Assembly (NCBI RefSeq): GCF_988243305.1 | Contig: NZ_OZ547136.1 | DNA length: 64,000 nucleotides | Reading direction: 5' to 3' (one strand) | Shown here: positions 27,476 to 56,479 of the stretch, in pieces | How the letters are laid out: each line of letters opens with the position of its first letter | Numbering within the stretch: position 1 is the stretch's first letter | Translations under genes and position numbers: made by a program | The notes under the pieces: generated by a model | Databases searched by the model: none | What the model was told of the DNA's origin: nothing | Seen by the model: the letters and a program-made list of their open reading frames with translations, nothing else

Positions 27476-27550
27476 TAGAGGATGTTGAGAATAAATCAGG
27501 ATATTAACTTTTTATATGTACCCAGGAAGAAACCAGGGTACATATAGATA

Positions 27551-28264: not shown

Positions 28265-28328
28265 AGCTATTCCTAATTGTAAACAATATGGCCGGGGTAG
28301 AAAGTGCGACCCCGGCTATCAACGTGTT

Positions 28329-35337: not shown

Positions 35338-35621
35338 AAAAAGCATTCCTTGCCCTGAAAAAGAGGGGGATATTCAATGTGAAGTGAATGCTTTGTTATA
35401 TCAAACTATTGCTGTGATGATCAAAAACACGATCATTTTCAATACGTTATAAATATGAATTGGAAATATTAATTGTTCTAATGAATGCGTGTTGAGGTGT
35501 TTCTTAATATATTTTGATTTATCCTGGAATGGTATTTTTGCAGAAACAAAGACGCTAACTTTTATTTTTTATTCGCAGCATAATGACGCCGTTTGCCAGT
35601 GCAATTTGACAGGAGTCATTC

Positions 35622-37721: not shown

Positions 37722-37764
37722 TATGGAATAATATCCTCTTTACCATGCAATCAAGGATCCTCTA

Positions 37765-38499
37765 ATGACAACCAAACTACTGGACCTGAGCTGGAATGCA
37801 AATGCCATCCCGGCGATGCAAATTGTCGGTACGCGCGCGGCCTTGTTTACCTTCAAAACGCATATGGCAGGGTTTGTCTGGGATGCCGCGCAACTGGAAA
37901 ATAACCCCTATACCTTTGTTGAAGTTAAAACGCTGCTCGATGGCGTCACCGTTGGCGGGCATAAGGTCAGTGATACTGAGCAGGTGTTGAACCTGGCAGA
38001 TAGCGCAAAAAAACTGATTGAACTTGTGCAATCCGGGCGTTTCGATCTTGATAAGAAAACGTTCACGTTGCTTAACGGCATTATTGCGCGTAATGAGGCG
38101 CTGGAGTGGGGCGTTTTTCGCGGCGAAGGTGATGAGTTACATTACAATGCGCGCGTTCACCTCGGCGAGTTGGGCACCCATTTCCCACCAGCCACAGAAG
38201 CAGGTGCACCTGAACTGAATCGAATATTCGCCGCAGGTGTGGCACAAATAAAAGAGATGCCACCGTTCGAAGGGGCGCTGGCAATGTTTTTATTTGGTGC
38301 TTATTTTCAGTTTTTCTTTGATGGCAACAAGCGTACCAGTCGCCATATGATGAACGGCTGGTTAATGCGCCACGGTTACAATCCCATTAGTGTACCCGCA
38401 GCTCGTGCGCTGGAGTTCAACAGCAAAATGGTGCGCTTTTATCACAGCAAAGATGCCAGTGAAATGATGGCATTTTTGGTGGATTGCTATCAGGTTTGA
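37765..38499 (+). CDS. Fic/Doc-like protein with non-canonical active-site motif (Q-x-F-x-DGNKR)
   Basis: 244-aa ORF; segment AMFLFGAYFQFFFDGNKRTSRHMMNGWLMRHGYNPISV matches the Fic/Doc core (HxFx(D/E)GN(G/K)RxxR ... LL.RHGY.P) except that His is replaced (Gln/Phe); starts 44 nt after the GmrSD-like gene with AAGGA Shine-Dalgarno. Confidence 0.6.
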   Translation: MTTKLLDLSWNANAIPAMQIVGTRAALFTFKTHMAGFVWDAAQLENNPYTFVEVKTLLDGVTVGGHKVSDTEQVLNLADSAKKLIELVQSGRFDLDKKTFTLLNGIIARNEALEWGVFRGEGDELHYNARVHLGELGTHFPPATEAGAPELNRIFAAGVAQIKEMPPFEGALAMFLFGAYFQFFFDGNKRTSRHMMNGWLMRHGYNPISVPAARALEFNSKMVRFYHSKDASEMMAFLVDCYQV

Positions 38500-38637
38500 A
38501 TAAGTGCTGGATGGTGTCCCAATGCTGCCATCCAGCCCCTTCATATCAACTTCCCTATCTTTTCCTAAAACGTGATGCTATTTCCAACATTCGAATCATC
38601 AGTGCACGAAAAGCAGATCGTAAAGAGAGGAATCGCT

Positions 38638-38940
38638 ATGAGCATGGTTAAACATAAACGAGGGACCTCCTCTACACTCGATGTGCAGCATGAGGCCGAA
38701 TTGAAGGCGCTGGCGAATAAATTCGACGAAGAGATTGATTACAGCGATATCCCACCTTCCAGCGATGAGCAATGGTCTAACGCAGAACGCGGTAAGTTTT
38801 ATCGGCCATTGAAAACCCAGGCTTCGGTGCGTATTGATGCTGATGTGATGGAATGGCTGAAGCGACCTGGTAAAGGCTATCAAACTCGCCTGAACGCAAT
38901 TTTACGTGAAGCGATGCTGCGCGATCAGAACAAAAAATAA
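38638..38940 (+). CDS. BrnA-like (COG3514) ribbon-helix-helix antitoxin-family protein
   Basis: 100-aa product from the ATG at 38638 (AGAGAGG Shine-Dalgarno); C-terminal RIDADVMEWLKRPGKGYQTRLNAILREAM resembles the BrnA antitoxin signature; no BrnT-like (DUF497) partner ORF adjacent. Confidence 0.65.
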   Translation: MSMVKHKRGTSSTLDVQHEAELKALANKFDEEIDYSDIPPSSDEQWSNAERGKFYRPLKTQASVRIDADVMEWLKRPGKGYQTRLNAILREAMLRDQNKK

Positions 38941-40193: not shown

Positions 40194-42344
40194 TTAGTGG
40201 TGCGAAGAGATCTTCACGCCGCCTTCCGGGATTGGAACGTACGGTGTTTCTTTGTCAGTACGTTTGTCGCTGTTACGCACCGCAAGCCAGGTTTTGAAAC
40301 CATAGAAGATGATGCTGTACACCACGATCAGGAACAGAATACTCAGACCTGCGTTGGTGTAGTTATTCACAACGATGTGGTTCATGTTGGCAATCTGCTG
40401 CGCCGTCAGGTCAGTACCGTTAGCAATCTTCTCTTTGTACTGGCTTGCCATGTAGAAGAAGCCTTCCATCTGCGGGTTGGTACTGAACAGTTTCAGGCCC
40501 AGCGCCCAGGTGGTGCAGATAAGCAGCCATACAGCCGGAACAACAGTTACCCAGATGTATTGGGTGCGCTTCATCTTAATCAGCACAACGGTACCCAGTA
40601 CCAGCGCCACGGCGGCCAGCATCTGGTTGGAGATACCGAACAGCGGCCACAGGCTCTTAACGCCGCCCAGCGGATCGACCACGCCCTGATACAGCAGGTA
40701 GCCCCACAGACCCACACAGCCCGCAGTACCGATGATACCAGCAACCAGAGAGTCGGTTTTTTTCAGGAACGGGATGAAGTTACCCAGCAGGTCTTGCAGC
40801 ATAAAGCGGCCAGAACGGGTACCCGCATCCAGCGCGGTCAGGATGAACAGGGCTTCGAACAGAATACCGAAGTGATACCAGAAGCCCATGTCAGCCATCG
40901 GCAGTACTTTGTGGAACACGTGAGCGATACCTACCGCCAGCGTTGGCGCACCACCTGCACGGTTCAGGACAGAAGGCTCACCAATGTCTTTCGCGGTTTG
41001 CAGGATCTGCTCTGGCGAAATCACGAAGCCCCAGGAGCTGACGGTCGCTGCCGCGTGTGCGGTAACGTCTTTCAGCTGCGCCATGATGATCGGCGCGTTC
41101 TCGCCACCCATTTCATGCAGGTTAGGCATGGTGATGCCAAGGCCAGCAGGCGGGGTATTCATCGCGAAGTAAAGACCCGGTTCGATGATGGACGCAGCAA
41201 CCAGCGCCATAATCGCCACGAAGGACTCCATCAGCATTGCGCCGTAGCCAATGAAACGCGCGTCGGTTTCATTAGCCAGCAGTTTCGGTGTCGTACCGGA
41301 AGAGATCAGTGCGTGGAAGCCAGATACCGCACCACAGGCGATGGTGATGAACAGGAACGGGAACAGAGCGCCTTTCCACAGCGGGCCAGTACCGTCAATG
41401 TACTGGGTCATCGCAGGCATTTTCAGTTCCGGGTTCAGCACCACGATACCCAGCGCCAGGCCGACGATAACGCCGATTTTCAGGAAGGTTGCCAGATAGT
41501 CGCGCGGTGCGAGGATCAGCCACACTGGCAGCAGTGCGGAAACAAACGCATAGCCAATCAGCGCGAAGGTAATGGTGGTGTCTTTAAAGGTCAGTGCCGG
41601 ACCCCAGTACGGATCGTGAGCAATCACGCCACCGAAGTAGATAGAGGCAACCAGCAGCACGATACCAATGACAGAGACTTCACCCACACGCCCCGGACGG
41701 ATAAAGCGCATGTAGATACCCATAAACAGCGCAATCGGTACGGTTGAGCAAACGGTGAAGACACCCCACGGACTTTCGGCCAGGGCTTTAACCACAATCA
41801 GCGCCAGGACGGCGAGGATGATGATCATGATTAAGAAACAGCCAAACAGCGCGATAGTCCCCGGTACTGGTCCCATCTCTTCTTTGATCATCTCACCGAG
41901 AGATGCGCCGTTACGGCGAGAGGAGATAAACAGCACCATAAAGTCCTGTACCGCACCGGCCAGCACGACCCCCGCCAGCAGCCACAGCGTGCCAGGCAGG
42001 TAGCCCATCTGCGCGGCGAGAACCGGACCCACCAGCGGACCAGCACCGGCGATAGCGGCGAAGTGGTGACCAAACAACACGTAACGGTTGGTCGGAACAT
42101 AGTTCAGACCGTCGTTGTTAATAACCGCAGGCGTCGCTCGCGTGGGGTCGAGTTTCATTACCTTCTGGGCGATGTACAGACTGTAGTAGCGATAAGCCAC
42201 CAGATACACCGACACAGAGGCGACCACGATCCACAGGGCACTGACGTGCTCCCCCCGACGTAATGCAACTACCGCGAGGCAGAATGCACCGATGATTCCG
42301 AGAATCACCCAGGGTATGTGCTTGAATAGTTTTTTCGTATCCAT
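40194..42344 (-). CDS. btsT: Pyruvate/H+ symporter BtsT (CstA family)
   Basis: 716-aa product from MDTKKLFKHIPWVILGIIGAF...; CstA-family polytopic transporter; start set at the internal ATG 42344. Confidence 0.9.
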   Translation of the reverse strand: MDTKKLFKHIPWVILGIIGAFCLAVVALRRGEHVSALWIVVASVSVYLVAYRYYSLYIAQKVMKLDPTRATPAVINNDGLNYVPTNRYVLFGHHFAAIAGAGPLVGPVLAAQMGYLPGTLWLLAGVVLAGAVQDFMVLFISSRRNGASLGEMIKEEMGPVPGTIALFGCFLIMIIILAVLALIVVKALAESPWGVFTVCSTVPIALFMGIYMRFIRPGRVGEVSVIGIVLLVASIYFGGVIAHDPYWGPALTFKDTTITFALIGYAFVSALLPVWLILAPRDYLATFLKIGVIVGLALGIVVLNPELKMPAMTQYIDGTGPLWKGALFPFLFITIACGAVSGFHALISSGTTPKLLANETDARFIGYGAMLMESFVAIMALVAASIIEPGLYFAMNTPPAGLGITMPNLHEMGGENAPIIMAQLKDVTAHAAATVSSWGFVISPEQILQTAKDIGEPSVLNRAGGAPTLAVGIAHVFHKVLPMADMGFWYHFGILFEALFILTALDAGTRSGRFMLQDLLGNFIPFLKKTDSLVAGIIGTAGCVGLWGYLLYQGVVDPLGGVKSLWPLFGISNQMLAAVALVLGTVVLIKMKRTQYIWVTVVPAVWLLICTTWALGLKLFSTNPQMEGFFYMASQYKEKIANGTDLTAQQIANMNHIVVNNYTNAGLSILFLIVVYSIIFYGFKTWLAVRNSDKRTDKETPYVPIPEGGVKISSHH

Positions 42345-42736: not shown

Positions 42737-43249
42737 TTAAATCGCAGCTTCCATTTCCAGCATCACCGGATGGAAACGGCGTTTAAAGTAGATAAGTCCG
42801 TGACCTTCTGCACTGAGGATGATGTTTTTAATCTCCACCAGATACACCAGATGTGTGCCAATTGCCTGCACATCGCGGATCTCACCTTCAAGACTGGCCA
42901 GCGAACCTTTTAGCACCGGCTGCGCCAGCGGACCTTTTTGCCAGCATGAGAGGCTAAAACGCTCTTCCATCGCCATGCCTGTCATGCCCGCGAAGTGGCG
43001 TGCCATCAGTTCCTGCTCATGGTTGAGGACGTTGACGCACAACTTGCCGTTGCCCTGAAAAACCGGGTTCATCGCACTGTTGGCGTTAATGCACACCATC
43101 AGCGACGGTGGTGTATCCGTGACCGAGCAGACAGCCGTTGCCGTAATCCCGCATTGTCCGGCGTCGCCCTCGGTGGTGATAATATTTACCGCTGCCGACA
43201 GGCTGGCCATTGCGTCACGAAAGCGCAGGCGTTGTTCATCTAATTGCAT
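42737..43249 (-). CDS. hpaC: 4-hydroxyphenylacetate 3-monooxygenase, flavin reductase component
   Basis: 170-aa flavin-reductase-fold ORF immediately downstream of hpaB. Confidence 0.9.
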   Translation of the reverse strand: MQLDEQRLRFRDAMASLSAAVNIITTEGDAGQCGITATAVCSVTDTPPSLMVCINANSAMNPVFQGNGKLCVNVLNHEQELMARHFAGMTGMAMEERFSLSCWQKGPLAQPVLKGSLASLEGEIRDVQAIGTHLVYLVEIKNIILSAEGHGLIYFKRRFHPVMLEMEAAI

Positions 43250-43266
43250 CTTAACCTCCTGCTGCG

Positions 43267-44829
43267 TTATTTCAGCAGCTTATCCAGCATGTTGATATCG
43301 TCGTTGTTGTGCAGGTGCGGCACAGTCCAGCCGTTCTGGTCGTATTCCGACAGGCAGCGATCAACCATCGCCATCATCTTGTCCATATTGCCGGAGCTTT
43401 GTGCCTGGCGCAGACACTGCAGGCGAATCTCATCCTGGCTACCGGAGTAGTTGATTTCATACAGTTCGTGACGACCACCAAATTCGCTGCCAATAGCATC
43501 CCACATCAGTTTGAGGATCTTGATGCGCTGGACGTGATCCATACCGTTCGAACCGCGCACATACTTCGCCAGATACTGGTCGATCTGCGGATTGTTCAGG
43601 TCACGGGCACTGGAAGGGAGATAGATCAGGCCACTGGTAACGTTGCGTTCGATAATGTTTTTGATCTTCGCGTAGGCCATTGGTGCCAGTACGCGATAGG
43701 TTTGCAGTGCGGCATGATCCGGTAAATAAGCCCCGTTGACCCACGGCGTCGCTTCTGAACACATCGAGTCACTCAATGCCCAGAAGGTGTTGCGCCACGC
43801 CACCACTTCACCGAGATCGGCCTGCACACCACGGAACTCCAGGGTGCCGGTACATTCGAGTGATTTTTTCAGCAGTGCCGTAATGAAGTCGAGTTTCACT
43901 GCCAGGCGCACACAGGCTTGCAGCGGATACATACGGGCGAAACCGCCTTCCATCGTCCAGCGACGGCAGCGATCAAAATCGCGGTAGATCAGCACGTTTT
44001 CCCATGGGATCAGCACGTTATCCATCACCAGAATCGCATCGTTCTCATCGAAGCGGCTGGAGAGCGGGTAGTCGTACGGCGAGCCGGTAGCACCCGCGAC
44101 CATCTCATAAGAGGCGCGGGAGATTAATTTCACGCCATCGGCATCCATTGGCGCAACGAACATCAGTGCGAAGTCCGGGTTTTCGCCCATCACTTGTGCC
44201 GAGCCGAAGCCAATCATGTTGTAGTGAGTCAGCGCCGAGTTGGTGGCAACCACTTTCGCACCGCTGACGATAATCCCGGCGTCAATCTCTTTTTCCAGCT
44301 TGATGTAAACGTCTTTCACTTTATCGGTCGGCAAATGACGATCAATCGGTGGGTTAACAATCGCGTGGTTAAAGTAGAGGCCAGTTTCCTGAATACGGGT
44401 GTACCAGTTACGGGCGTTCTGCTCGAACTGACCGTAAAAGCCCGGATTCGCGCCCAGTGCGCAACCGAAAGCAGCCTTGTAGTCTGGGGTACGGCCCATC
44501 CAGCCATAGCTCAGGCGTGACCACTCAGCGATGGCGTCGCGTTGCTGGCGCAGGTCGTCGGCACTTTTCGCCACGCGGAAGAATTTATGGGTATAGCCGC
44601 CGCTGCCGGTGTCGGTGTTCCAACACAGAGAGTCCTGCATCTCCGGTTTGTGCAGCGCGTCGTACAGTTGGGCAACAGACGCTGCCGCATTACGAAATGC
44701 CGGATGAGTGGTGACGTCTTTCACTCGCTCGCCATAGATATAGATCTCGCGACCATCCTGCAGGCTTTTCAGATACTCTTCCCCGGTGAACGGACGTTGG
44801 GTACTGGCGCGGAAATCTTCTGGTTTCAT
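43267..44829 (-). CDS. hpaB: 4-hydroxyphenylacetate 3-monooxygenase, oxygenase component
   Basis: 520-aa ORF recognised as HpaB (FADH2-dependent two-component monooxygenase large subunit). Confidence 0.92.
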   Translation of the reverse strand: MKPEDFRASTQRPFTGEEYLKSLQDGREIYIYGERVKDVTTHPAFRNAAASVAQLYDALHKPEMQDSLCWNTDTGSGGYTHKFFRVAKSADDLRQQRDAIAEWSRLSYGWMGRTPDYKAAFGCALGANPGFYGQFEQNARNWYTRIQETGLYFNHAIVNPPIDRHLPTDKVKDVYIKLEKEIDAGIIVSGAKVVATNSALTHYNMIGFGSAQVMGENPDFALMFVAPMDADGVKLISRASYEMVAGATGSPYDYPLSSRFDENDAILVMDNVLIPWENVLIYRDFDRCRRWTMEGGFARMYPLQACVRLAVKLDFITALLKKSLECTGTLEFRGVQADLGEVVAWRNTFWALSDSMCSEATPWVNGAYLPDHAALQTYRVLAPMAYAKIKNIIERNVTSGLIYLPSSARDLNNPQIDQYLAKYVRGSNGMDHVQRIKILKLMWDAIGSEFGGRHELYEINYSGSQDEIRLQCLRQAQSSGNMDKMMAMVDRCLSEYDQNGWTVPHLHNNDDINMLDKLLK

Positions 44830-45055
44830 GTCGACCTCTACAGTATTAATCGGAATACGATTGTTAATTTTGTGTGTTGTTTTTGTTATTCAATTGAATC
44901 GTTGAACGCGGTTGTCGGGAAGAGACGTTTCAGGCGAACGTTGGTACTTTTCGCCAGCAAGGTGGAGTTAAATAGTAAACTGCGATCGTGATCAACTTAC
45001 AGTAAGGCAAATCATAATATTCCCCGCTAACAAGGGCTAACGGGGACGGAATTGT

Positions 45056-45994
45056 TTATGGGGCGAATGGAATGGTAATCGTCATATTTTCATGACCAAC
45101 GACGATAGGGCCTGAATAGTTTTTCTGTGCTTCTTGCTTCCATGTTTCATCCGGAACGGTGATTGGTACCAGGTGGCTAAGGATGAGTTTTTTCACTTTT
45201 GCTTCATTGGCAATTTTGCCTACATCCTCAATAGTCGTATGGTGAGAAGCAATGGCTTTTGCCAGTGTTTTACCATTGCCAATACTGTCTGCCAGCTTAG
45301 CGACGGAGGGCTCATGTACGGCCTCATGCACAAGTATATCAGCGCCTTCTGAGAAAGTTGCCAGTGGGGGAAAGTACGAGGTATCTCCTGAGAAGACAAT
45401 TCGCTTGCCTTGTGTGTCGAAGCGATAAGCAAAAGCCTCACCGTCAGGGAAAGGAGAATGAGGAACCTTTAATGCAGTCACGGTCACGGTATCATCTTTA
45501 TAAACTACGCCTTCACCAACATCTTGAGCTGTAACGAGCTTGCGAGGATCGGGTTTTCCTTCTTCTTCCATACGCAGTGTGATGTCCCGATCGAAGACCT
45601 GCCAACTGGCAGCGGTCATGGCTCGGGTACCTGGCGGACCGAACACATGAATATTTTTGTCCTGCAGACCGCTAGCCCATGCATTCATTAAGACTGAGGG
45701 ATAGTCCAGAATATGATCACTGTGTAAATGGGTGAGTAAAATATTATCAATCTGGCGCAGTGGAATATTATTTTTTACCAGTTGTAAGCTGGCCCCGTAA
45801 CCAGCATCAATTAACCATGTTTTATTGCCAATAATAAGTGCCGTTGCCATCGGCAAACGGTCAGCTTTTAATAAAGAAGGGCCACCTTTCGTTCCAAGTA
45901 GTACAATTTTCATTTCTTGCAGTTCGGAGGCGTAGGTGAATGCCACTGGCGCAATCAGGCACGCCACAAATAGTGAGCGTAAAGATATTTTCAT
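45056..45994 (-). CDS. Metallo-beta-lactamase-fold hydrolase with signal peptide (function unknown)
   Basis: 312-aa product from MKISLRSLFVACLIAPVAFTYA (signal-peptide-like); HxHxDH motif (THLHSDH); lies between hpaA and hpaB. Confidence 0.75.
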   Translation of the reverse strand: MKISLRSLFVACLIAPVAFTYASELQEMKIVLLGTKGGPSLLKADRLPMATALIIGNKTWLIDAGYGASLQLVKNNIPLRQIDNILLTHLHSDHILDYPSVLMNAWASGLQDKNIHVFGPPGTRAMTAASWQVFDRDITLRMEEEGKPDPRKLVTAQDVGEGVVYKDDTVTVTALKVPHSPFPDGEAFAYRFDTQGKRIVFSGDTSYFPPLATFSEGADILVHEAVHEPSVAKLADSIGNGKTLAKAIASHHTTIEDVGKIANEAKVKKLILSHLVPITVPDETWKQEAQKNYSGPIVVGHENMTITIPFAP

Positions 45995-46020
45995 GTCGAG
46001 TCTCTCAGGTTGATAAATGG

Positions 46021-46914
46021 TCAGCGACCACGGAATTGTGTTGGTGAGCAACCCATCATTCGGTTGAAAAAACGGGCGAAATAGGCGGGATCTTTGTAGC
46101 CAAGATCAAGGGCAATCTGGTTGATGCTTTGCTCGCTATAGAGCAGAAGCCGTCTGGCTTCCCGGCTCATTCGTTCGAAAATCAATCTCTTCGGCGATTG
46201 ATTGGCAAAACGTCGGCATAGCTCGGTAAGCCGTGATTCACTCATACCGAGCATTGCTGCATATTCAGGGACCATTAAATGTTGGCGATAATTTTCGTCA
46301 ATCAGCCGATTAAACTTCTGGAATAAACACATCTCGCCGCGCACGCTGCATGTTGAAATATCATTTGGTGGTGCTTCACGCAGTAGGATTGTAAAAATAC
46401 TTTGCGCCAGTGATTGCAATAGAATTTCCCGTCCTGGCTTATTTTGTTGAAACTCCAGGGATATTATCGGCCAATAATGATTTAATGCCGCCAGTGTATG
46501 TTCCATTCCCTCCAGCGACAGACAGATACCTTGTAGCATTGCGGCATCTCCACTACCAGGCCAGAGCTTTTCTACCAGGGGCCAAATTAACTCCTGACGT
46601 ACGGTCAGAACATGCCCGTCGCTATCAGGCTCAGTAAAGAAAGTATGTGGCACCGATGGTGGTGTTAGTACAAAAAGCGGTGCGCGCACAGAATAGAAGT
46701 GCTCATCCAGCTGTAAAGTAATGCGTCCAGTGACCAGATAATGGAGTTGAAAATATCTATCGTGCCAGTGAGGGCGCATATCGCGTCCAAAGAAATTCGC
46801 TAACCTGGCAAATGTTTCATAATGCACATCTTCACCAGCGTAGCGGGCATCATATTCCCGGACCAAATCAATATTTTCATAACCATGTTCAAAGATAGCT
46901 TCACTGGACATCAT
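46021..46914 (-). CDS. hpaA: AraC/XylS-family activator of hpaBC
   Basis: 297-aa ORF with N-terminal cupin-like sensor and C-terminal AraC-type HTH (QIALDLGYKDPAYFARFFNRMMGCSPTQFR). Confidence 0.85.
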   Translation of the reverse strand: MMSSEAIFEHGYENIDLVREYDARYAGEDVHYETFARLANFFGRDMRPHWHDRYFQLHYLVTGRITLQLDEHFYSVRAPLFVLTPPSVPHTFFTEPDSDGHVLTVRQELIWPLVEKLWPGSGDAAMLQGICLSLEGMEHTLAALNHYWPIISLEFQQNKPGREILLQSLAQSIFTILLREAPPNDISTCSVRGEMCLFQKFNRLIDENYRQHLMVPEYAAMLGMSESRLTELCRRFANQSPKRLIFERMSREARRLLLYSEQSINQIALDLGYKDPAYFARFFNRMMGCSPTQFRGR

Positions 46915-46920
46915 GACTCC

Positions 46921-48288
46921 TTATTGCGGTTTTGGTGCGATAAGTTCAGATGAAAGAGAGTGTTCCCGACTCCCCATAGGAATTCGGGTCATGACTAACG
47001 CGCCCAGTACCAGTAATCCTGCTACAAACCACAAACCTGAGCTAAAACTGCCGGTTGCATCTTTCAAAATACCGATAAGTAATGGACTGACTGCTGAACC
47101 TACATTACCGACAGCATTGATGACAGCCATCGCAACGGCACGCGATTGCAAGCTTATTACTTGATCCGGTGTCGTCCAAAAGATAGCCATTGCGGTAAAT
47201 GATCCCATTGAGGCCATAATGATGCCGCTCAGTTGAATGAGGCTGTGATCAGTCGCAGAAGCGAGTAACCATCCGGCAGCGGCAAACAGGTAGGGAAGAA
47301 TCGTATGCTTTTTGCGTTCTTTAAGACGGTCGGAACGACGACTCCACCAGATCATGCCAAAAATTGTGCAGAATTGGGGGATGGCCGCCAGCAAACCAAT
47401 CATGATGTTGCTACTGCCAGTATTGAAACTCTGTAGGATTTGCGGCGTCCAGATATTAATCGCACTCAGAGTATTGGTCAGGCAAAAATAAGCAAGTGTA
47501 TATAGCATGATGGCTGGGGTCAGGACTTCACGTAAGGTTGAGCGTGGAACAGATGCATGGGCAAATGCACTCTCTTGTTCACGGAGAATCATCGTTTTTA
47601 AAGCCTGTTTTTCGTTTTCATCAAGCCAGGTCGCCTGGTCTGGTGTATCGTTGAGATAAAACCAGGTGACGACACCAAGAATGACCGATGGCAGACCTTC
47701 CAGCAAAAAGAGCCATTGCCAGCCTTTTAGATTCCACAGTCCATCCAAGGCCAGAATGTAGCCTGAAAGGATCGATCCCAGCATCATAGTGACTGGCATC
47801 GCTATCATAAATAAGGCATTGGCTCTGGCCCGATGATATGCCGGGAACCACCAGGTCAGATAAACCAAAATACCAGGTAAAAAACCCGCCTCAGCAATAC
47901 CAACCAGCATACGCAGTAGATAGAGTGTTTCGGGGCTTGTTGCAAACATTGTGCAGGTGGAAGCAACTCCCCAGACCACCATGATCCCAGCGATCCATCG
48001 ACGAGCGCCAATTTTCGCTAACATCATATTACTGGGGATCCCGCACATGACGTACGTGACATAAAAGAGTGTCGCGGCGAGGCCAAACATTGTGGACGTC
48101 AGGCCAAGATCCTTGCCCATTGTCAGTCCGGCAAATCCTATATTGATGCGATCAAGAAACGAAAAAACAAACAGAATAAAAAGAAAAATGATTAGGCGAC
48201 GAAATAATTTATTAATGACACGATGTTCAATTTCAACAGTTTTATTATCTTTATATTGCAGGGTAGAGGTCGTCATGATGCGCTCCAC
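46921..48288 (-). CDS. hpaX: 4-hydroxyphenylacetate MFS permease
   Basis: 455-aa 12-TM MFS transporter in the expected position of the hpa cluster. Confidence 0.85.
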   Translation of the reverse strand: MERIMTTSTLQYKDNKTVEIEHRVINKLFRRLIIFLFILFVFSFLDRINIGFAGLTMGKDLGLTSTMFGLAATLFYVTYVMCGIPSNMMLAKIGARRWIAGIMVVWGVASTCTMFATSPETLYLLRMLVGIAEAGFLPGILVYLTWWFPAYHRARANALFMIAMPVTMMLGSILSGYILALDGLWNLKGWQWLFLLEGLPSVILGVVTWFYLNDTPDQATWLDENEKQALKTMILREQESAFAHASVPRSTLREVLTPAIMLYTLAYFCLTNTLSAINIWTPQILQSFNTGSSNIMIGLLAAIPQFCTIFGMIWWSRRSDRLKERKKHTILPYLFAAAGWLLASATDHSLIQLSGIIMASMGSFTAMAIFWTTPDQVISLQSRAVAMAVINAVGNVGSAVSPLLIGILKDATGSFSSGLWFVAGLLVLGALVMTRIPMGSREHSLSSELIAPKPQ

Positions 48289-48297
48289 ATCGTACGT

Positions 48298-49101
48298 TTA
48301 GTAGACAGAGTTGTTGTTTTGCTTCGCCATCGAAATAGAAGAACTATTACCAAACCGTGCTGCCAGCGCTTCGGCGGCGCGGGCGAGCAGGGTGGTGTCA
48401 ACGCCGACGGCGACAAATAGCGCGCCCAGTTCCAGGTAGTGTTTTGCCAGTTGCTCATTGGCGATCAGGATACCCGGCGCCTTACCCGCTTCGCGGATCT
48501 GCACGATCGCCTGCTCAATCGCGGCCTGCACTTCCGGGTGTTGCGGATTACCGGCATAACCCATATCGGCGCTCAGATCCGCCGGGCCGATAAACACGCC
48601 GTCGACGCCTTCCACGTCCAGAATCTGCGGTAAGTTCTTCATTGCCTCACGCGTTTCGATCTGCACCAGTACGCACATTTGATCGTTGGCTTTTTGCAGG
48701 TAATCCGGAATACGGTTCCAGCGCGAGGCGCGTGCCAGCGCACTGCCCACACCGCGAATACCGGCGGGGGGATAACGGGTGGCGCGTACCGCTTCACGGG
48801 CTTCGTCGGCGTTTTGTACCATCGGCACCAGTAAGGTTTGTGTGCCGACGTCCAGCAGTTGTTTGATTTGCACCGGATCGTTCCACGATGGGCGTATCAC
48901 CGGCTGGCTGGGGTAGGGCGCAATCGCCTGTAGCTGGGTGAGCACGGTTTGCACGTTATTCGGCGCGTGCTCACCGTCGATCAATAACCAGTCGAATCCT
49001 GCTCCGGCCAGTAACTCTGCGCTGTAGCTGCTACTCAGCCCCAGCCATAATCCGATCTGCGGGCGGCCTGCTTTCAGCGCCGCTTTAAAACTGTTTTCCA
49101 T
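48298..49101 (-). CDS. hpaI: 2,4-dihydroxyhept-2-ene-1,7-dioate aldolase
   Basis: 267-aa product from the ATG at 49101 ([21 protein letters not shown]..., GGAGAG Shine-Dalgarno); HpcH/HpaI aldolase family. Confidence 0.85.
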
Positions 49102-49111
49102 CGTTCTCTCC

Positions 49112-49915
49112 TTAAACAAAGCGGCAGCTAATGGAGCCCATGTTGCCGTAATCGACGTGGAAGGTGTCGCCCTTACGCGCCGGAACCGGGCGGGTGAACG
49201 AACCGCCGAGAATGATTTGCCCGGCTTCCAGTTGTACGTCATACGGTGCGAGTTTGTTCGCCAGCCAGGCTACGCCGTTTGCCGGATGATTCAGCACACC
49301 AGCGGCGACGCCGGTTTCTTCAATCACGCCATTGCGATACATCAGGGCGGAGATCCAGCGCAGATCCAACTCATCGGGCTTAATGGGACGACCGCCGAGG
49401 ATCACCCCGGCGTTGGCGGCGTTATCGGAAATGGTGTCGAACACTTTGCGCGGGCGCTGGGTTTCCGGATCGATGTTGTGGCAGCGAGCGTCGATCAGCT
49501 CCAGCGCCGGGATCACATAATCCGTGGCGTTGTAGACGTCGAACAGCGTGCAGTTTGGTCCACGCAGCGGTTTTGCCAGCACGAAAGCCAGCTCCACTTC
49601 AATGCGCGGCACGATAAAGCGATCGGTCGGGATATCGCTGCCATCGTGGAAGAACATGTCATCCAGCAGGGCACCGTAATCCGGTTCGCTGATTTGCGAG
49701 CTGGCCTGCATCGCTTTCGAGGTCAGGCCGATTTTGTGGCCTTTCAGCGTACGGCCTTCGGCAATTTTCAGGCGGACCCATTCGCGCTGCACCGCGTAAG
49801 CGTCTTCGATGGTGATCTCCGGGTAATCCAGCGAGATCGCGCGGATCTGTTCGCGCTGTTTTTCTGCCTGATCCAGACGCTGGGCGATCAGGGTGTGGGT
49901 GTGTTTATCGAACAT
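49112..49915 (-). CDS. hpaH: 2-oxo-hept-3-ene-1,7-dioate hydratase
   Basis: 267-aa product from [14 protein letters not shown]...; hydratase/decarboxylase family; the track ORF start 49933 is an in-frame upstream extension. Confidence 0.85.
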
Positions 49916-49982
49916 GGCGATATCCTGTGGCATTGCCGGATGCGGCTGCGCCTTATCATCCGGCCTGGAAGCTGGTACAAAT

Positions 49983-50363
49983 TTATTTAAACAACGCGTG
50001 TACGTTGTTCTGTTTGAAATTCAACGTCGGGTGCAGCTCTGCAATCTCAAATGAAAGCGCCAGGTAACGGCTCTCCATCAGTGAGGCGAAGTGCGTTTTA
50101 ATCAGATCAAACAGCATTTCGCCTACTTCCTGACGGCTTTCCAGACTGCGCCCGCTGCCGATTTTTAGCGTCATATGCACAAAGGCGTAATCGTGCTTGC
50201 CATCAGCCATTTGCCAGGTATCGATCCAGTGCGCCCGGCTACGTATTCCCCCAAGCGGAAAAATCCCCGTCGCCGCCAGTGCAGTGTTAACACTGGCAAA
50301 CAGCTCAGGTAAGCGGGCTTCTTGACGAATATTTTCAGTACATTCCACGATAAAGTGCGGCAT
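49983..50363 (-). CDS. hpaF: 5-carboxymethyl-2-hydroxymuconate isomerase
   Basis: 126-aa [15 protein letters not shown]...; CHM isomerase family. Confidence 0.85.
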
Positions 50364-50372
50364 GGTGGTTCC

Positions 50373-51224
50373 TTACGCGGGAAGCGGGAAAACAGCGTTA
50401 ACCTGACCGGTGCCAGAGCTTGGGAACAGCTCGGTGATAAACTCTACCTTGCCGTCGTATTTATCCCAGCCGAGCATCCCCAGCAGCATCACCGTGTCGT
50501 GCATATTGCCTTCGCCGTAGCAGTAGTCAGCGTACTCCGGCAGCATATTGCAGAACTCTTTGAACTGGCCTTCGCGCCACAACTTCACCACGCGCTCGTC
50601 CATCTGGCGGTCGAACTCGCGGGTGTAGCTGTTCATCCCTTCTTCCGCACGCTGATCGTCAATAAAGCGGTGCGATAATGAACCGCTGGCAAGGACCGCC
50701 ACGGTGCCGTCGTACTGTTCGATCGCTTTCAGAATCGCTTCGCCCAGCTTGCGGCTGTCGGCAAAATCATGAACGGTACAGAATGCGGAGATGGAGACCA
50801 CTTTGAAGTGCTTGTCTTCATTCATGTAGCGCATTGGCACCAGCGTGCCGTATTCCAGTTTCAGGCTGGGAATGTTGTGCGCTTTTGCCCGCACGCCGAG
50901 CTTTAAGGCTTCATCGGCAATTAGCTGCCCCAACTCCGGGTTGCCCTCGTAGTTGTAGGTCATGTCACGAATAAAATGCGGCAGCTCGTTACTGGTGTAG
51001 ACGCCTTCAAAATGGTCTGCACAGTTGATGTGATAAGCACTGTTGACCAGCCAGTGAGTATCGAAAACGATAATGGTATCGACGCCCATTTCCCGGCAAC
51101 GCTTGCTGATCTCTTTATGCCCGTCGATCGCGCCCTGGCGGCAACCGTGGTTTTTCCCTGGCAGTTCAGAGAGATACATCGACGGTACGTGCGTGATCTT
51201 GGCGGCTAACGCTAACTTACCCAT
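50373..51224 (-). CDS. hpaD: 3,4-dihydroxyphenylacetate (homoprotocatechuate) 2,3-dioxygenase
   Basis: 283-aa extradiol dioxygenase (LigB-type) ORF in the hpa meta-cleavage operon. Confidence 0.88.
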   Translation of the reverse strand: MGKLALAAKITHVPSMYLSELPGKNHGCRQGAIDGHKEISKRCREMGVDTIIVFDTHWLVNSAYHINCADHFEGVYTSNELPHFIRDMTYNYEGNPELGQLIADEALKLGVRAKAHNIPSLKLEYGTLVPMRYMNEDKHFKVVSISAFCTVHDFADSRKLGEAILKAIEQYDGTVAVLASGSLSHRFIDDQRAEEGMNSYTREFDRQMDERVVKLWREGQFKEFCNMLPEYADYCYGEGNMHDTVMLLGMLGWDKYDGKVEFITELFPSSGTGQVNAVFPLPA

Positions 51225-51225
51225 A

Positions 51226-52692
51226 TCAGACTCCCCATTTCGGAATTGGATGGTCGCCCATGGAAATGCAGACGTTCTTCATTTCCGCGAACACTTCGAA
51301 GCTGTACTCACCGCCTTCACGCCCGGTGCCGGAGGCTTTTACGCCGCCAAATGGCTGGCGCAGGTCACGCACGTTCTGGGTGTTGACGAACACCATGCCA
51401 GCTTCAATGCCACGCGCCAGGCGTAACACTTTGCTGACATCCTGTGTCCAGATGTACGACGCGAGGCCGTACTCCACGTCGTTTGCCAGACGTAAGCCTT
51501 CGGCTTCGTCTTTAAACGGCAGCAGGCAGGCGACCGGCCCGAAAATCTCTTCCTGGGCGACTCGCATACGGTTATCAACGTCTGCCAGCACGGTTGGGCG
51601 CAGGAAGTTGCCGCCTTTCAGGTGCGCAGGCAGGTCGGACGGTTTATCCGGACCGCCCGCCAGCAGGGTTGCGCCTTCTTCAATGCCGAGACGAATATAG
51701 CCGGAGACTTTTTCCCAGTGTTGCTGGCTGATAAGCGCCCCAACCTGGGTATTCGGATCGTTCGGATCGCCCACGCGCAGACGGTTGGCGCGTTCGGCAA
51801 AGCGTTTAACGAATTCCGGGTAGATGCTTTGCTGAATAAAGATGCGCGAACCGGCGGTGCAGCGCTCGCCGTTGATCGAGAAGATGGTGAACAGGGCAGC
51901 GTCCAGCGCGCGTTCAATATCGGCATCTTCAAAAATCAGCACCGGCGATTTACCGCCCAGTTCCATGGAGTATTTTTTCAGCCCGGCGTTTTTCATGATG
52001 TTGCGCCCGGTGGCCGTACCGCCGGTGAACGACACGGCACGTACGTCATGATGACGAACCAGCGCATCGCCTGCGGTTGCGCCGTAGCCCTGTACCACGT
52101 TCAGCACGCCCGCCGGAATACCGGCTTCCAGCGCCAGCTCACCCAGGCGGTCAGCGGTCAGCGGGGAGAGTTCCGACATTTTCAACACCGCGGTATTGCC
52201 CAGCGCCAGACACGGCGCGACCTTCCATGTGGCGGTCATAAACGGCACGTTCCACGGCGATACCAGCGCACAAACGCCTACCGGTTGCACCAGCGTGTAG
52301 TTGAGCATCTTGTCGTCAACCGGATAGGTCTTGCCGTTCATCTGCTGGCAGACTTCCGCGAAAAATTCAAAGTTGTGAGAAGCGCGTGGGATCAATACAT
52401 TTTTGGTCTGATGGATCGGCAGGCCCGTGTCCGCGGTTTCCATCGCGGCGATCTCAGGCACGTTCTGGTCGATCAGATCGCCCAGACGGCGCATCAGGCG
52501 CGCACGCTCTTTCATCGGCAGATTGGCCCATTTCGGGAACGCCTCTTTCGCTGCCGCTACCGCCTGATTGATCTCCGCTTCACCGCCGGAGGCCACATCT
52601 GCCAGCACTTCACCCGTTGCCGGATTGGTGGTCTGGAAGTAGTCGTTACCTGCAACATTTTTGCCGTTGATCCAATGATTTACTTTTTTCAT
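51226..52692 (-). CDS. hpaE: 5-carboxymethyl-2-hydroxymuconate semialdehyde dehydrogenase
   Basis: 488-aa NAD-dependent aldehyde dehydrogenase ORF (ELGGKSP, catalytic Cys context GERCTAGSR). Confidence 0.9.
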   Translation of the reverse strand: MKKVNHWINGKNVAGNDYFQTTNPATGEVLADVASGGEAEINQAVAAAKEAFPKWANLPMKERARLMRRLGDLIDQNVPEIAAMETADTGLPIHQTKNVLIPRASHNFEFFAEVCQQMNGKTYPVDDKMLNYTLVQPVGVCALVSPWNVPFMTATWKVAPCLALGNTAVLKMSELSPLTADRLGELALEAGIPAGVLNVVQGYGATAGDALVRHHDVRAVSFTGGTATGRNIMKNAGLKKYSMELGGKSPVLIFEDADIERALDAALFTIFSINGERCTAGSRIFIQQSIYPEFVKRFAERANRLRVGDPNDPNTQVGALISQQHWEKVSGYIRLGIEEGATLLAGGPDKPSDLPAHLKGGNFLRPTVLADVDNRMRVAQEEIFGPVACLLPFKDEAEGLRLANDVEYGLASYIWTQDVSKVLRLARGIEAGMVFVNTQNVRDLRQPFGGVKASGTGREGGEYSFEVFAEMKNVCISMGDHPIPKWGV

Positions 52693-53978
52693 TTCGCTGT
52701 TTCCTCACTCACAATTCGGTTCACCAGGCGGCCCACGCCTTCTACTTCCACCACTACTTCATCGCCAGGCACCACGTCAGATAAGCCTTTTGGTGTGCCG
52801 GTGGCGATCATGTCGCCCGGATTCAGGGTCATAAATTCGCTTAAGTAGGCGATCAGGAAGGGCACGCTGAAGATCAGATCGGCGGTGGTGCCTTGCTGGC
52901 GTAACTCGCCGTTGACGAAGGTGCGAAGGGTCAGATTATGCGGGGCCGGGATCGCCTCTTTCGGCACGATGGTTGAAAGCATCGGCGTCAGTCCGTCGCG
53001 GCTTTTTACCCGCAGGTTAGGGCGGTAGTAGTTTTCCAGATAGTCGCGAATGGCGTAGTCGTTACACACGGTGTAGCCCGCGACATAATCCATGGCATCG
53101 GCTTCGCTGACGTTACGCGCCTGCTTGCCAATAACTACCACCAGCTCCGCTTCGTAGTGCATGTATTCAATATTGTTCGGGCGCACGGAGGTCTGGTTAT
53201 CGCCAGTGAGGGTATTCGGCGCTTTCAGGAACACCAGCGGTTCTTCCGGTGGCTTAAATTCCAGTTCGCTGGCGTGGTCGGCGTAGTTCAGGCCGAGGGC
53301 AAACAGCGTGCCGTGCGGGTGTGGCTGCGTTGGGAAGCTCTTGCGCGTGGTCACTTCACGTTCGTCCACTACCGGATTTTCCAGTGGCGGGAAACCTTCT
53401 GCGAGAACACGCACGCGATCGCCTGGCTGTATTTCCACGCGCGCCTGTGGCGTGCCGAGCAGAATGGCATCGCCTGGATTCAGCGTGGCAAATTCGCTCA
53501 GGGCGCTCAGCAACTGTGCGGCGTTACGTTGTAAATCGGCGGTATTCCAGTGATCGGCAGGACGCCCGTTGATCTCGGTATAGATAGTCAGATTATCGAC
53601 ATTGCTGAGAGCCACGGTTTCGCCAATGGGGCAGAATCCATCACGACATTTTGCTTTGATTGCCGGGCGGTAAAAGCTCTCTTCCGGCAGGCTGACGTCG
53701 TTAGCCAGCGCATATCCGGCGATGTACTCTGCCGCATCTTCTTCACGTACTTTCGTCGCCGTTTTCCCCACCATCAACGCAACAGTCGCACCGCTCAGTA
53801 CCTTTTCACCCTGTGGAAAGGGAATCCGTTCACCGCAACCAATCACCGTATTGCGCGGTTTAATAAACCAGACCGCAGTTTTAGGCGGGGTTTTGTAGGG
53901 GGATTGCTGGAACGCTTCCTGCCATGCATCAAGCTGGCTGCGATGGTTCAACGCTACGGCGAAGATAGTGCCTTTCAT
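52689..53978 (-). CDS. hpaG: Bifunctional OPET decarboxylase / HHDD isomerase (tandem FAH-fold domains)
   Basis: 429-aa product from MKGTIFAVALNH...; two fumarylacetoacetate-hydrolase-like halves; 4-nt overlap with hpaE start. Confidence 0.88.
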   Translation of the reverse strand: MKGTIFAVALNHRSQLDAWQEAFQQSPYKTPPKTAVWFIKPRNTVIGCGERIPFPQGEKVLSGATVALMVGKTATKVREEDAAEYIAGYALANDVSLPEESFYRPAIKAKCRDGFCPIGETVALSNVDNLTIYTEINGRPADHWNTADLQRNAAQLLSALSEFATLNPGDAILLGTPQARVEIQPGDRVRVLAEGFPPLENPVVDEREVTTRKSFPTQPHPHGTLFALGLNYADHASELEFKPPEEPLVFLKAPNTLTGDNQTSVRPNNIEYMHYEAELVVVIGKQARNVSEADAMDYVAGYTVCNDYAIRDYLENYYRPNLRVKSRDGLTPMLSTIVPKEAIPAPHNLTLRTFVNGELRQQGTTADLIFSVPFLIAYLSEFMTLNPGDMIATGTPKGLSDVVPGDEVVVEVEGVGRLVNRIVSEETAK

Positions 53979-54249
53979 TACCACTCCTCGGATTCGATCA
54001 TCTTAATCATTAATATGTTAATGATTACTTTTATTCCCGATTGCGTAGTTTGGCAAAAGTAAGTGATGTAAATGTGATCTAATTAACAAACTATTTACAT
54101 TTGCAGGTAATAAAATACTAAATATCAGTAAGTTAATAAAGTATGCTCAATTTTGATAAAATGAGGAATTGCGGGGATAGCTCAGTCCCGGTAACGTGAT
54201 GATTAACTGTTTCTATATTAATGATTTTGAATTTTTCAGGGGAAAGATA

Positions 54250-54696
54250 ATGCACGACTCACTAACCATTGCGTTGCTCCAGGCGCGAGAAGCGGCGATG
54301 AGTTATTTTCGCCCAATCGTTAAACGGCATAATTTGACTGAGCAACAGTGGCGCATCGTGCGTATTCTGGCGGAAAGCCCATCAATGGATTTTCACGATC
54401 TGGCGTATCGCGCCTGCATTTTGCGCCCAAGCCTGACCGGGATCCTCACGCGGATGGAACGCGACGGTTTAGTGTTGCGATTAAAGCCGATCAATGATCA
54501 GCGGAAGCTCTATATCTCGCTGACCAAAGAGGGGCAGGCGCTGTATAACCGCGCTCAGACACAGATTGAAGAGGCCTATCGGCAGATTGAAGCTCAGTTT
54601 ACTGCCGAGAAAATGCAACAGTTAACCCATCTGTTAGAGGAATTTATTGCTCTGGGTAATTCCCGACAAGAAGACATCCCGGGCGATAATGAATAA
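54250..54696 (+). CDS. hpaR: MarR-family repressor of the hpa meta operon
   Basis: 148-aa product from the ATG at 54250 (MHDSLTIALLQAREAAMSYFRPI...); MarR winged helix; divergent from hpaG. Confidence 0.85.
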   Translation: MHDSLTIALLQAREAAMSYFRPIVKRHNLTEQQWRIVRILAESPSMDFHDLAYRACILRPSLTGILTRMERDGLVLRLKPINDQRKLYISLTKEGQALYNRAQTQIEEAYRQIEAQFTAEKMQQLTHLLEEFIALGNSRQEDIPGDNE

Positions 54697-54814: not shown

Positions 54815-56479
54815 ATGTTAAAACGTATCAAAATTGTGACCAGCTTACTGCTGGTTTTGGCCGTTTTTGGCCTTTTACAACTGACATCAGGCGGTCTGTT
54901 CTTTAATGCCTTAAAGAATGACAAAGAAAATTTCACTGTTTTACAAACCATTCGCCAGCAGCAATCCACGCTGAATGGCAGCTGGGTCGCGTTGTTGCAG
55001 ACGCGTAACACCCTCAACCGCGCGGGTATCCGCTACATGATGGATCAGAATAATATTGGTAGCGGTTCAACCGTTGCTGAGCTGATGCAGAGTGCCAGTA
55101 TTTCGCTGAAACAGGCGGAAAAAAACTGGGCGGATTACGAAGCGTTGCCGCGTGACCCGCATCAGAGCACCGCCGCAGCGGCAGAGATCAAACGTAATTA
55201 CGATATTTATCACAATGCGCTGGCGGAGCTGATCCAACTGTTAGGTGCAGGCAAAATCAACGAGTTCTTTGATCAGCCAACCCAGGGATATCAGGACGGT
55301 TTCGAGAAGCAGTATGTGGCTTACATGGAGCAAAACGATCGGCTCTATGATATCGCCGTCAGCGATAATAATGCCTCCTACAGCCAGGCGATGTGGATCC
55401 TGGTGGGCGTGATGATCGTCGTACTGGCAGTCATCTTCGCCGTCTGGTTCGGTATTAAAGCCTCGTTGGTAGCGCCAATGAATCGCCTGATTGACAGCAT
55501 TCGTCATATTGCAGGCGGCGATCTGGTGAAACCGATTGAGGTGGATGGCTCTAATGAGATGGGGCAACTGGCAGAGAGTTTGCGCCATATGCAGGGAGAG
55601 CTGATGCGAACCGTCGGTGATGTGCGCAACGGGGCCAATGCCATCTATAGCGGTGCCAGCGAAATCGCCACCGGCAATAACGATCTCTCTTCGCGCACCG
55701 AGCAACAGGCCGCTTCGCTGGAAGAGACGGCAGCCAGCATGGAGCAACTGACCGCAACGGTGAAACAGAACGCCGAGAATGCGCGTCAGGCCAGCCATCT
55801 GGCGTTAAGTGCTTCTGAAACGGCGCAACGCGGCGGCAAAGTGGTGGATAACGTAGTACAGACCATGCGCGATATCTCCACCAGTTCGCAGAAAATCGCC
55901 GATATTATCAGCGTAATTGACGGCATTGCCTTCCAGACCAATATTCTGGCTTTGAACGCGGCGGTTGAGGCTGCGCGTGCGGGTGAGCAAGGGCGCGGTT
56001 TTGCGGTGGTCGCGGGAGAAGTGCGTAATCTGGCCCAGCGCAGCGCCCAGGCGGCTCGTGAAATTAAAAGCCTGATTGAAGACTCGGTGGGGAAAGTGGA
56101 TGTTGGCTCTACGCTGGTCGAAAGCGCCGGGGAAACAATGGCGGAGATTGTCAGTGCCGTGACCCGCGTGACGGACATTATGGGCGAAATTGCTTCTGCT
56201 TCTGATGAGCAGAGCCGTGGTATCGATCAGGTTGGATTAGCGGTTGCTGAGATGGACCGGGTAACTCAACAGAACGCCGCGCTGGTGGAAGAATCTGCCG
56301 CCGCCGCTGCCGCGCTGGAAGAGCAGGCCAGTCGCCTGACCGAAGCTGTGGCAGTGTTCCGGATTCAGCAACAGCAGCAACAGCAGCGTGAAACATCGGC
56401 TGTAGTAAAAACCGTGACGCCAGCTACGCCGCGTAAAATGGCCGTGGCAGATAGCGGCGAGAACTGGGAAACGTTTTAA
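54815..56479 (+). CDS. tsr: Methyl-accepting chemotaxis protein I (serine chemoreceptor)
   Basis: 554-aa ORF; periplasmic ligand domain, HAMP, highly conserved MCP signalling domain and C-terminal NWETF pentapeptide. Confidence 0.93.

Follow-up and report, generated by a model that had tools for sequence, protein, structure and literature searches.

The hpa genes for the catabolism of 4-hydroxyphenylacetate (4-HPA) are textbook biology, and HpaBC is already in biotechnological use. In E. coli W and C, HpaX imports 4-HPA or 3-hydroxyphenylacetate (3-HPA), HpaBC converts both to 3,4-dihydroxyphenylacetate (homoprotocatechuate, HPC), and HpaD, E, F, G, H and I carry this compound on to pyruvate and succinic semialdehyde; HpaR is the repressor of the meta operon and HpaA the activator of hpaBC. 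The cluster of E. coli W was reportedly described by Prieto, Diaz and Garcia in 1996, and the hpc/hpa genes of E. coli C and B are said to be identical to it. Here we consider the hpa cluster at positions 42737-54696 of a 64,000-nucleotide stretch of DNA (contig NZ_OZ547136.1 of RefSeq assembly GCF_988243305.1; the window). In our judgment, with a probability of roughly 80%, this is an intact chromosomal hpa island at the btsT-tsr site of a rare mosaic type, one that carries an imported block with its own hpaX and hpaA alleles (hpaX' and hpaA') and a gene for a predicted secreted hydrolase.

With the E. coli W/B/C-type cluster, for which BL21 and one typical strain were compared, the window shares the same 11 genes, their order and orientation, and the btsT-tsr site. 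HpaB, C, D, E, F, G, H and R are 98 to 100% identical to their standard counterparts (HpaC, 99 to 100%), and HpaI is 97 to 98% identical outside its C terminus. The hpaX and hpaA alleles, in contrast, are just 70% and 58% identical in amino acid sequence and 66 to 69% identical in nucleotide sequence. HpaX has 451 residues in place of 458, the hpaI-hpaX spacer is 21 nt long in place of 124 to 175 nt, the hpaBC promoter has a foreign upstream half, and the C terminus of HpaI is chimeric. Only the window form has a gene for a hydrolase of the metallo-beta-lactamase (MBL) fold, predicted to be secreted, between hpaA and hpaBC.

The hpa island and its replaced block

Gene calls come from the open reading frames (ORFs) of the window and from RefSeq annotation mapped from NZ_CP148331.1 (99.7% identical). 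The features are as follows, with bit scores against family models and their cut-offs in brackets.

~44900-48349: replaced block of 3.45 kb, comprising the 3' end of hpaI, hpaX', hpaA', the MBL gene and the upstream half of the hpaBC promoter
40194-42344, minus strand: btsT (yjiY), pyruvate/H+ symporter, left flank (mapped annotation and ORF)
42737-43249, minus strand: hpaC, flavin reductase component of 4-HPA 3-monooxygenase, 170 residues (NF012030, 385.6 bits, cut-off 315, full length)
43267-44829, minus strand: hpaB, oxygenase component of 4-HPA 3-monooxygenase, 520 residues (TIGR02310, 1108.6 bits, cut-off 885)
44830-45055, minus strand: hpaBC promoter region (four-way alignment)
45056-45994, minus strand: gene for an MBL-fold metallo-hydrolase, 939 nt, 312 residues (PF12706, 3e-20)
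46021-46911, minus strand: hpaA', divergent AraC-family activator of hpaBC, 296 residues (TIGR02297, 490.6 bits, cut-off 274.65)
46921-48276, minus strand: hpaX', divergent 4-HPA permease of the major facilitator superfamily (MFS), 451 residues (TIGR02332, 861.5 bits, cut-off 615.4)
48298-49101, minus strand: hpaI, aldolase, 267 residues (TIGR02311, 433.8 bits, cut-off 368.8, residues 3-250)
49112-49915, minus strand: hpaH, hydratase (TIGR02312, 464.7 bits, cut-off 351.5)
49983-50363, minus strand: hpaF, 5-carboxymethyl-2-hydroxymuconate (CHM) isomerase (NF011605, 263.5 bits, cut-off 215)
50373-51224, minus strand: hpaD, homoprotocatechuate 2,3-dioxygenase (TIGR02298, 549.9 bits, cut-off 316)
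51226-52692, minus strand: hpaE, CHM semialdehyde (CHMS) dehydrogenase (TIGR02299, 739.3 bits, cut-off 638)
52689-53978, minus strand: hpaG, bifunctional isomerase/decarboxylase (NF011750, 969.7 bits, cut-off 811)
54250-54696, plus strand: hpaR, MarR-family repressor, divergent from hpaG (TIGR02337, 201.1 bits, cut-off 121.2)
54815-56479, plus strand: tsr, serine chemoreceptor, right flank (mapped annotation and ORF)

An initial annotation had placed a complete hpa cluster between btsT and tsr, and both the ORFs and the mapped annotation bear this out, with the ends at 42737 (hpaC) and 54696 (hpaR) exact. The eleven genes it named were named correctly and are indeed intact; all are uninterrupted ORFs of the lengths annotated in NZ_CP148331.1, free of internal stops, and each of the 11 Hpa proteins scores above the equivalog cut-off of its NCBIfam model along the entire sequence. 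There are, however, 12 genes between these ends and not 11, the MBL hydrolase gene (45056-45994) having been overlooked. The junctions had been called tight or overlapping, as most of them are (hpaG shares 4 nt with hpaE, and most other gaps are 1 to 26 nt), but this does not hold for hpaF-hpaH (67 nt), for the divergent hpaG/hpaR pair (271 nt) or for the step from hpaA to hpaBC. The last of these spans 1191 nt between hpaA and hpaB, compared with 250 nt in BL21 and one typical strain, and holds the 939-nt MBL gene, which starts 26 nt past the hpaA stop. That the hpa genes are accessory in E. coli also agrees with our counts, hpaB being present in 2071 of 5426 complete genomes and K-12-type genomes matching the flanks only.

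An equivalence to the E. coli W/B cluster of the literature, implicit in the initial annotation, is not borne out. In blastn against standard clusters, identity is 98% on either side of the block and drops to 66 to 69% inside it, as measured against BL21 and the typical strain. The left edge lies at ~44950 by blastn and was shifted to ~44900, ~70 nt upstream of the hpaB ATG, by a four-way alignment; the right edge, at ~48349, lies within the final ~17 codons of hpaI. HpaI is therefore chimeric, with 267 residues compared with 262 in the standard form. GC content is 0.46 to 0.49 inside the block and 0.53 to 0.59 outside it, with sharp steps at both ends. At third codon positions (GC3), the MBL gene (0.41), hpaA' (0.43) and hpaX' (0.47) are low in common, compared with 0.57 to 0.72 in the other hpa genes, so that a single history is shared by all three.

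The identity of gene names, order and flanks, together with catabolic enzymes 97 to 100% identical to those of standard E. coli, might suggest that this is the E. coli W/B/C cluster and nothing more. We consider that very improbable: it is already refuted by spacing, blastn and protein comparison with BL21 and the typical strain, given the twelfth gene, the divergence of hpaX and hpaA, and block DNA that differs by about one third and is lower in GC. This form is also found in just 48 of the 2071 hpa-positive genomes. A 13.5-kb query spanning the full arrangement was covered to at least 80% in these 48 of the 5426 complete E. coli genomes (2.3% of the hpa-positive ones), and ~2000 further genomes cover 75% of it. 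The MBL gene was likewise present in 48 E. coli genomes, in all of them chromosomal, at least 99% identical and annotated as an intact coding sequence. Since the two counts are the same, hpaX'A' never occurs without the MBL gene in E. coli.

HpaA' is 58% identical to the standard E. coli protein and 60% identical to that of Salmonella; for HpaX', the values are 70% and 71%. Standard E. coli and Salmonella are 87% identical to each other in HpaA and 88% in HpaX, and both are distant from the window, which makes the window alleles the outgroup. This bears on the idea that hpaX'-hpaA'-MBL is ancestral in Escherichia and Salmonella and that the common E. coli form arose from it when the MBL gene was lost and hpaXA were replaced. 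It is true that Salmonella too has an MBL gene after hpaA and that the window MBL protein is 76 to 81% identical to it, closer than HpaA is. Yet an identity of 87 to 88% between standard E. coli and Salmonella is normal for orthologues, and the window proteins stand at 58 to 70% to both. The GC3 of the block (0.41 to 0.47) is below that of its neighbours and of the standard E. coli and Salmonella versions (0.56 to 0.67), the steps in GC are sharp at both block ends, and the standard E. coli hpaA-hpaB spacer holds no remnant of an MBL gene. An ancestral origin thus seems improbable, and we favor import of the block.

How might the block have arrived? No repeats or target-site duplications were found at its ends, no Rfam family matched anywhere in the window, and no plasmid carried a copy (the best plasmid matches reached 67 to 72% and covered hpaXA only), so these searches of the block revealed no mobile-element scar. 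Because there are neither end repeats or duplications nor a plasmid copy, homologous recombination within conserved hpa sequence would be the simplest route, with breakpoints at the hpaI 3' end and ~70 nt upstream of the hpaB ATG. The closest relatives of HpaA' are in a metagenomic lineage (contigs L090-L093; 84%) and in Pluralibacter gergoviae (80%). In the metagenomic lineage, the counterparts of HpaX' and HpaA' are 84 to 88% identical, and the order is hpaI-hpaX-hpaA, a 263-nt spacer, and hpaB, with no MBL gene; the hpa cluster of P. gergoviae has none either. Neither is likely to be the donor, as both lack the MBL gene and have much higher GC3. That no donor was identified among these relatives or among plasmids counts against import.

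The hpaBC promoter is itself composite. Over the ~70 nt adjoining the ATG (44830-~44899) it matches standard E. coli exactly, and farther upstream (~44900-45055) its sequence is foreign in type; the stretch where an AraC-type activator would bind arrived together with hpaA'. A direct repeat of the form GAAA(A/C)GT with a spacing of 21 bp, GAAAAGTACC (44952-44943) and GAAACGTCTC (44931-44922), is conserved in all four aligned promoter versions, and its two copies are candidate HpaA half-sites. Since HpaA' and HpaX' both score as equivalogs, their roles are probably unchanged. It is also reasonable to infer, as the initial annotation did, that the source strain would grow on 4-HPA, because the catabolic enzymes are 97 to 100% identical to standard ones and HpaA' and HpaX' are still equivalogs, although the inducer and uptake specificity of this divergent pair may differ from the standard. 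We imagine that hpaX', hpaA' and the hydrolase gene would be cotranscribed; given a gap of just 21 nt between hpaI and hpaX', readthrough from the HpaR-controlled meta operon into these three genes may occur as well.

The twelfth gene and its product

The 312-residue hydrolase has the domains Lactamase_B_2 (PF12706, 3e-20) and Lactamase_B (PF00753) and reaches no NCBIfam cut-off. Its N terminus, MKISLRSLFVACLIAPVAFTYA/SE, resembles a Sec signal peptide when read by eye, which would leave residues 23-312 as the mature protein, and a hydrophobic leader of similar type is present in all 20 aligned relatives. In the same 20-sequence alignment, H89, H91, D93 and H94 (the HxHxDH motif), H179, D204, H252 and H274 are invariant. 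Against the Salmonella homologue, the gene has a nonsynonymous divergence (dN) of 0.155, and synonymous sites are saturated, so that only dN can be used. By this measure the gene is under purifying selection, and with dN at this value while synonymous sites are saturated, and with all metal ligands invariant, it is predicted to be functional.

The AlphaFold2 model of the hydrolase has a predicted local distance difference test score (pLDDT) of 88.9. Among solved structures, the top sequence match is the arylsulfatase of Pseudoalteromonas atlantica (8gyg; 1e-25), followed by Bacillus subtilis RNase Z, and 8gyg is also the best structural match of the model. A profile of the hydrolase family gives 183 bits over the full length of 8gyg, 103 for PNGM-1 and 101 for RNase Z. 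We found no publication on 8gyg in the literature searched. ElaC-like MBL arylsulfohydrolases form family S4 of the SulfAtlas database, which is found in Alphaproteobacteria and marine Gammaproteobacteria and for which, as of 2016, activity was recorded on an artificial substrate only (PMC5066984).

Public sources name relatives of the hydrolase "ribonuclease BN" or "Ribonuclease Z", and RNase Z models are its second-best NCBIfam matches. That it is a tRNase Z or RNase BN is nevertheless hardly credible, and we rejected this identity: the scores fall far below the equivalog cut-offs (127.3 bits compared with 252, 125.7 compared with 292.95 and 123.8 compared with 363), and the flexible-arm exosite (residues ~151-200 of 1y44) has no counterpart, the alignment splitting at that point. 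The predicted N-terminal signal sequence, typical of the family, would also be incompatible with tRNA processing in the cytoplasm. A second candidate, hpaY of Pseudomonas putida U, was rejected as well, as hpaY is a second HpaR-type repressor and not a hydrolase (PMC7180172).

Gene neighbourhoods and the proposed role of the hydrolase

The strongest evidence on the function of the hydrolase comes from gene neighbourhoods. These were scanned in one genome per species among the best 80 of 439 genome hits, with additional contig look-ups, and the arrangements were as follows.

Salmonella enterica: hpaGEDFHI-hpaX-hpaA-MBL
Pseudomonas putida: hpaG1G2EDF-MFS-hpaHI-MBL
Alcanivorax/Alloalcanivorax, four species: hpaA / hpaG1G2EDFHI-MBL
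Cobetia crustatorum: hpaE/F, FAD hydroxylase, tripartite ATP-independent periplasmic (TRAP) transporter, MBL, porin, aldehyde dehydrogenase
Stutzerimonas stutzeri KOS6: hpaR-hpaA-TRAP-MFS-MBL, then C2 oxygenase and C1 reductase (Acinetobacter-type 4-HPA 3-hydroxylase)
Pseudomonas guariconensis: HpaR, OprD-like ORF (no family match; read from sequence), MBL
Acinetobacter sp. P8-3-8: OprD porin, HpaR-like regulator, MFS, MBL, Aldedh-MaoC
Acinetobacter sp. ANC 3832: MFS / MBL, with GMC oxidoreductase, aldehyde dehydrogenase and copper amine oxidase downstream

In at least seven genera, the MBL gene adjoins HPA or HPC genes, and it does so in four positions: after hpaA, after hpaI, before hpaBC and before a 4-HPA hydroxylase that is not orthologous to HpaBC. 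The last case is S. stutzeri KOS6, where the two hydroxylase components score 748 bits (cut-off 650) and 548 bits (cut-off 340) and the MBL gene lies directly upstream of them, the same relative position as in the window. Because the pathway occurs once per genome, an association in at least seven genera and four positions goes beyond chance. No description of an MBL gene in hpa clusters, or of a link between such a hydrolase and HPA catabolism, was found in the literature searched.

Some neighbourhoods of more distant homologues contain other genes. In Bradyrhizobium, the MBL relative adjoins a permease of the TauE/SafE family. In Achromobacter sp. Bel (L102, 2198-8079), a 40%-identical homologue lies between a formylglycine-type sulfatase and a dioxygenase resembling 4-hydroxyphenylpyruvate dioxygenase (HPPD) or hydroxymandelate synthase, in a putative operon that also holds an FMN-dependent dehydrogenase and a TctC binding protein, with a MarR regulator adjacent; this order brings a classical sulfatase and an MBL enzyme together in an aromatic-acid context.

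On balance, we lean towards the hydrolase being an accessory enzyme of HPA/HPC catabolism. Its probable task is to release HPA-type phenolics from their conjugates in the periplasm, as it is predicted to be secreted, its gene is found beside porins and transporters, and it lies ahead of a hydroxylase. In such a scheme, the hydrolase would act in the periplasm on a masked HPA-type phenolic and would release free 4-HPA, 3-HPA or HPC for entry through HpaX. What bond might be cleaved? The relationship to 8gyg and S4 puts aryl sulfates first among the candidates. Compounds of this kind are also present in the habitats of these bacteria: the sulfates of hydroxyphenylacetic acid and dihydroxyphenylacetic acid have been annotated in seaweeds (PMC12432060), and our literature search found both reported in mammalian metabolomes. 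Still, we suggest only tentatively that the bond is an aryl-sulfate ester, such as that of hydroxyphenylacetate sulfate or dihydroxyphenylacetate sulfate. More doubtful again is the proposal taken as a whole, that the protein would be a periplasmic S4-like aryl-sulfate esterase for sulfated hydroxyphenylacetates, deconjugating them ahead of HpaX and HpaBC, a step that Salmonella and a minor lineage of E. coli would share with Pseudomonas, Alcanivorax and Cobetia.

Several observations weigh against these proposals. About 98% of hpa-positive E. coli genomes lack the hydrolase gene, and so do the nearest hpaX'A' lineages (L090-L093) and Pluralibacter, from which it follows that the hydrolase is dispensable for the module. 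Relatives at 40 to 46% identity (Bradyrhizobium, Roseomonas) and some Pseudomonas homologues have no hpa linkage. Identity to 8gyg is just 24 to 26% for the window hydrolase and 26 to 34% across the family, and the structural scores of RNase Z, PNGM-1 and YhfI are close behind that of the arylsulfatase, so that, on fold, phosphodiesterase or other esterase chemistry would be equally possible. Finally, a scan for promoters and terminators gave no signal above chance expectation, and both cotranscription and the signal peptide are readings of the sequence alone.

Some of the same facts could be explained if the MBL gene were a passenger that was linked in the donor, encoding a generic periplasmic phosphodiesterase or nuclease or a cryptic PNGM-1-like beta-lactamase. 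Phosphodiesterases (ZiPD, YhfI) and PNGM-1 belong to the same fold class and score nearly as high as the arylsulfatase; several homologues are not linked to hpa, and most hpa clusters work without an MBL gene. A mere passenger, however, would not be expected to adjoin HPA/HPC genes in at least seven genera and four positions, which is far above chance, and PNGM-1 is just 20 to 23% identical. We therefore regard a passenger gene as unlikely, though it deserves to be kept in mind, and continue to favor an accessory role in HPA/HPC catabolism.

Confirming an hpa cluster adds little in itself; the mosaic variant and the hydrolase go further. A regulator/transporter module that was swapped in one piece, along with the upstream portion of the promoter under its control, would be a clean natural case of modular replacement inside an operon, and the alternative pair of HpaA' and its promoter may have another effector range, with possible use as a biosensor. 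The MBL hydrolase, with its putative signal peptide, is a good candidate for the enzyme of a peripheral step now missing from the pathway, in which HPA-type phenolics would be set free from their conjugates. If sulfated hydroxyphenylacetates are indeed its substrates, one can envision phase-II conjugates of the host being used in the gut and sulfated seaweed phenolics in the sea, connecting host or algal sulfated phenolics to bacterial aromatic catabolism. This would give ElaC-like MBL sulfatases their first physiological substrate and would add an unrecognised step to the HPA catabolon.

Other features of the window and comparison with known systems

Metabolic islands of more than one kind have settled at the btsT-tsr site, which seems to be a hotspot for them. 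In some E. coli it holds an island with a sodium:solute symporter, an N-acyl-D-amino-acid deacylase, an amino acid deaminase and a MurR/RpiR regulator; in O157:H7 it holds a single hypothetical gene only. Elsewhere in the window, an 11-kb stretch (27476-38588) has no alignment to the otherwise closest genome and is covered to at least 80% in just 114 genomes. In other E. coli it is annotated with the R, M and S genes of a type I restriction-modification system, a GmrSD-type endonuclease (35622-37721) and a Fic-family protein (37765-38499), and it is a variable defence region of what we call the "immigration control" type. Next to it, at 38572-38940, is an ORF for a BrnA-antitoxin-like protein (122 residues) without a BrnT toxin partner; the closest genome has both brnT and brnA, and the break in homology at ~38589 coincides with the expected place of brnT.

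Among known systems with an MBL gene, the closest is the hpa cluster of Salmonella enterica, in which the gene comes right after hpaA and encodes a protein 76 to 81% identical to the window hydrolase. The cluster of this Salmonella protein at 90% identity has 1719 member sequences, which indicates that the gene is common in Salmonella; the homologue is probably STM1109, for which the literature entry is only "putative periplasmic protein". The layout there is hpaCB-hpaR / hpaGEDFHI-hpaX-hpaA-MBL, beside cbpM/cbpA/scsABCD. With hpaBC at the opposite side, the MBL gene is not upstream of hpaBC, as it is in the window, and the Salmonella HpaA and HpaX are of the standard type (87 to 88% identical to ordinary E. 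coli), unlike those of the window.

Salmonella-like contigs show further variation around this gene. Seven contigs carry a 419-residue ORF in which an hpaE-like aldehyde-dehydrogenase N terminus is fused to the MBL hydrolase (for example, L088, 10001-11260, and L089, 1412-2671), apparently from a deletion of hpaE' through hpaA. In L084 (1-9700), a Mu-like prophage (MuA transposase, MuB, Gam, Mor and GemA) lies directly upstream of the MBL gene, at the usual place of hpaA. Between the Salmonella MBL gene and cbpM, there is ~1.4 kb with no called gene (L085, 5044-6465, and equivalents in L086-L089).

A functional parallel may be the tyramine-regulated arylsulfatase (atsBA) of Klebsiella and Salmonella, which Murooka and Harada are said to have found regulated jointly with tyramine oxidase. 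Papers on this enzyme are cited by PMC8070173 and PMC5066984. It would be a precedent for enterobacterial coupling of arylsulfatase expression to the tyramine-to-4-HPA route; the enzyme itself differs from the hydrolase in being a formylglycine (S1) sulfatase of another fold, encoded elsewhere, and is not known to have any tie to the MBL gene.

In sequence and fold, a described family that the hydrolase resembles is S4, with AtsA of Pseudoalteromonas carrageenovora and 8gyg. The hydrolase differs from it by the low identity given above and shares with it the ElaC-like MBL fold, the HxHxDH motif and His/Asp ligands, and an alignment over the full length. The taxonomic spread of the hydrolase family also fits that of S4, in Alphaproteobacteria and marine Gammaproteobacteria (PMC5066984), and we would place it, at best, as a sister subfamily of the S4 arylsulfohydrolases.

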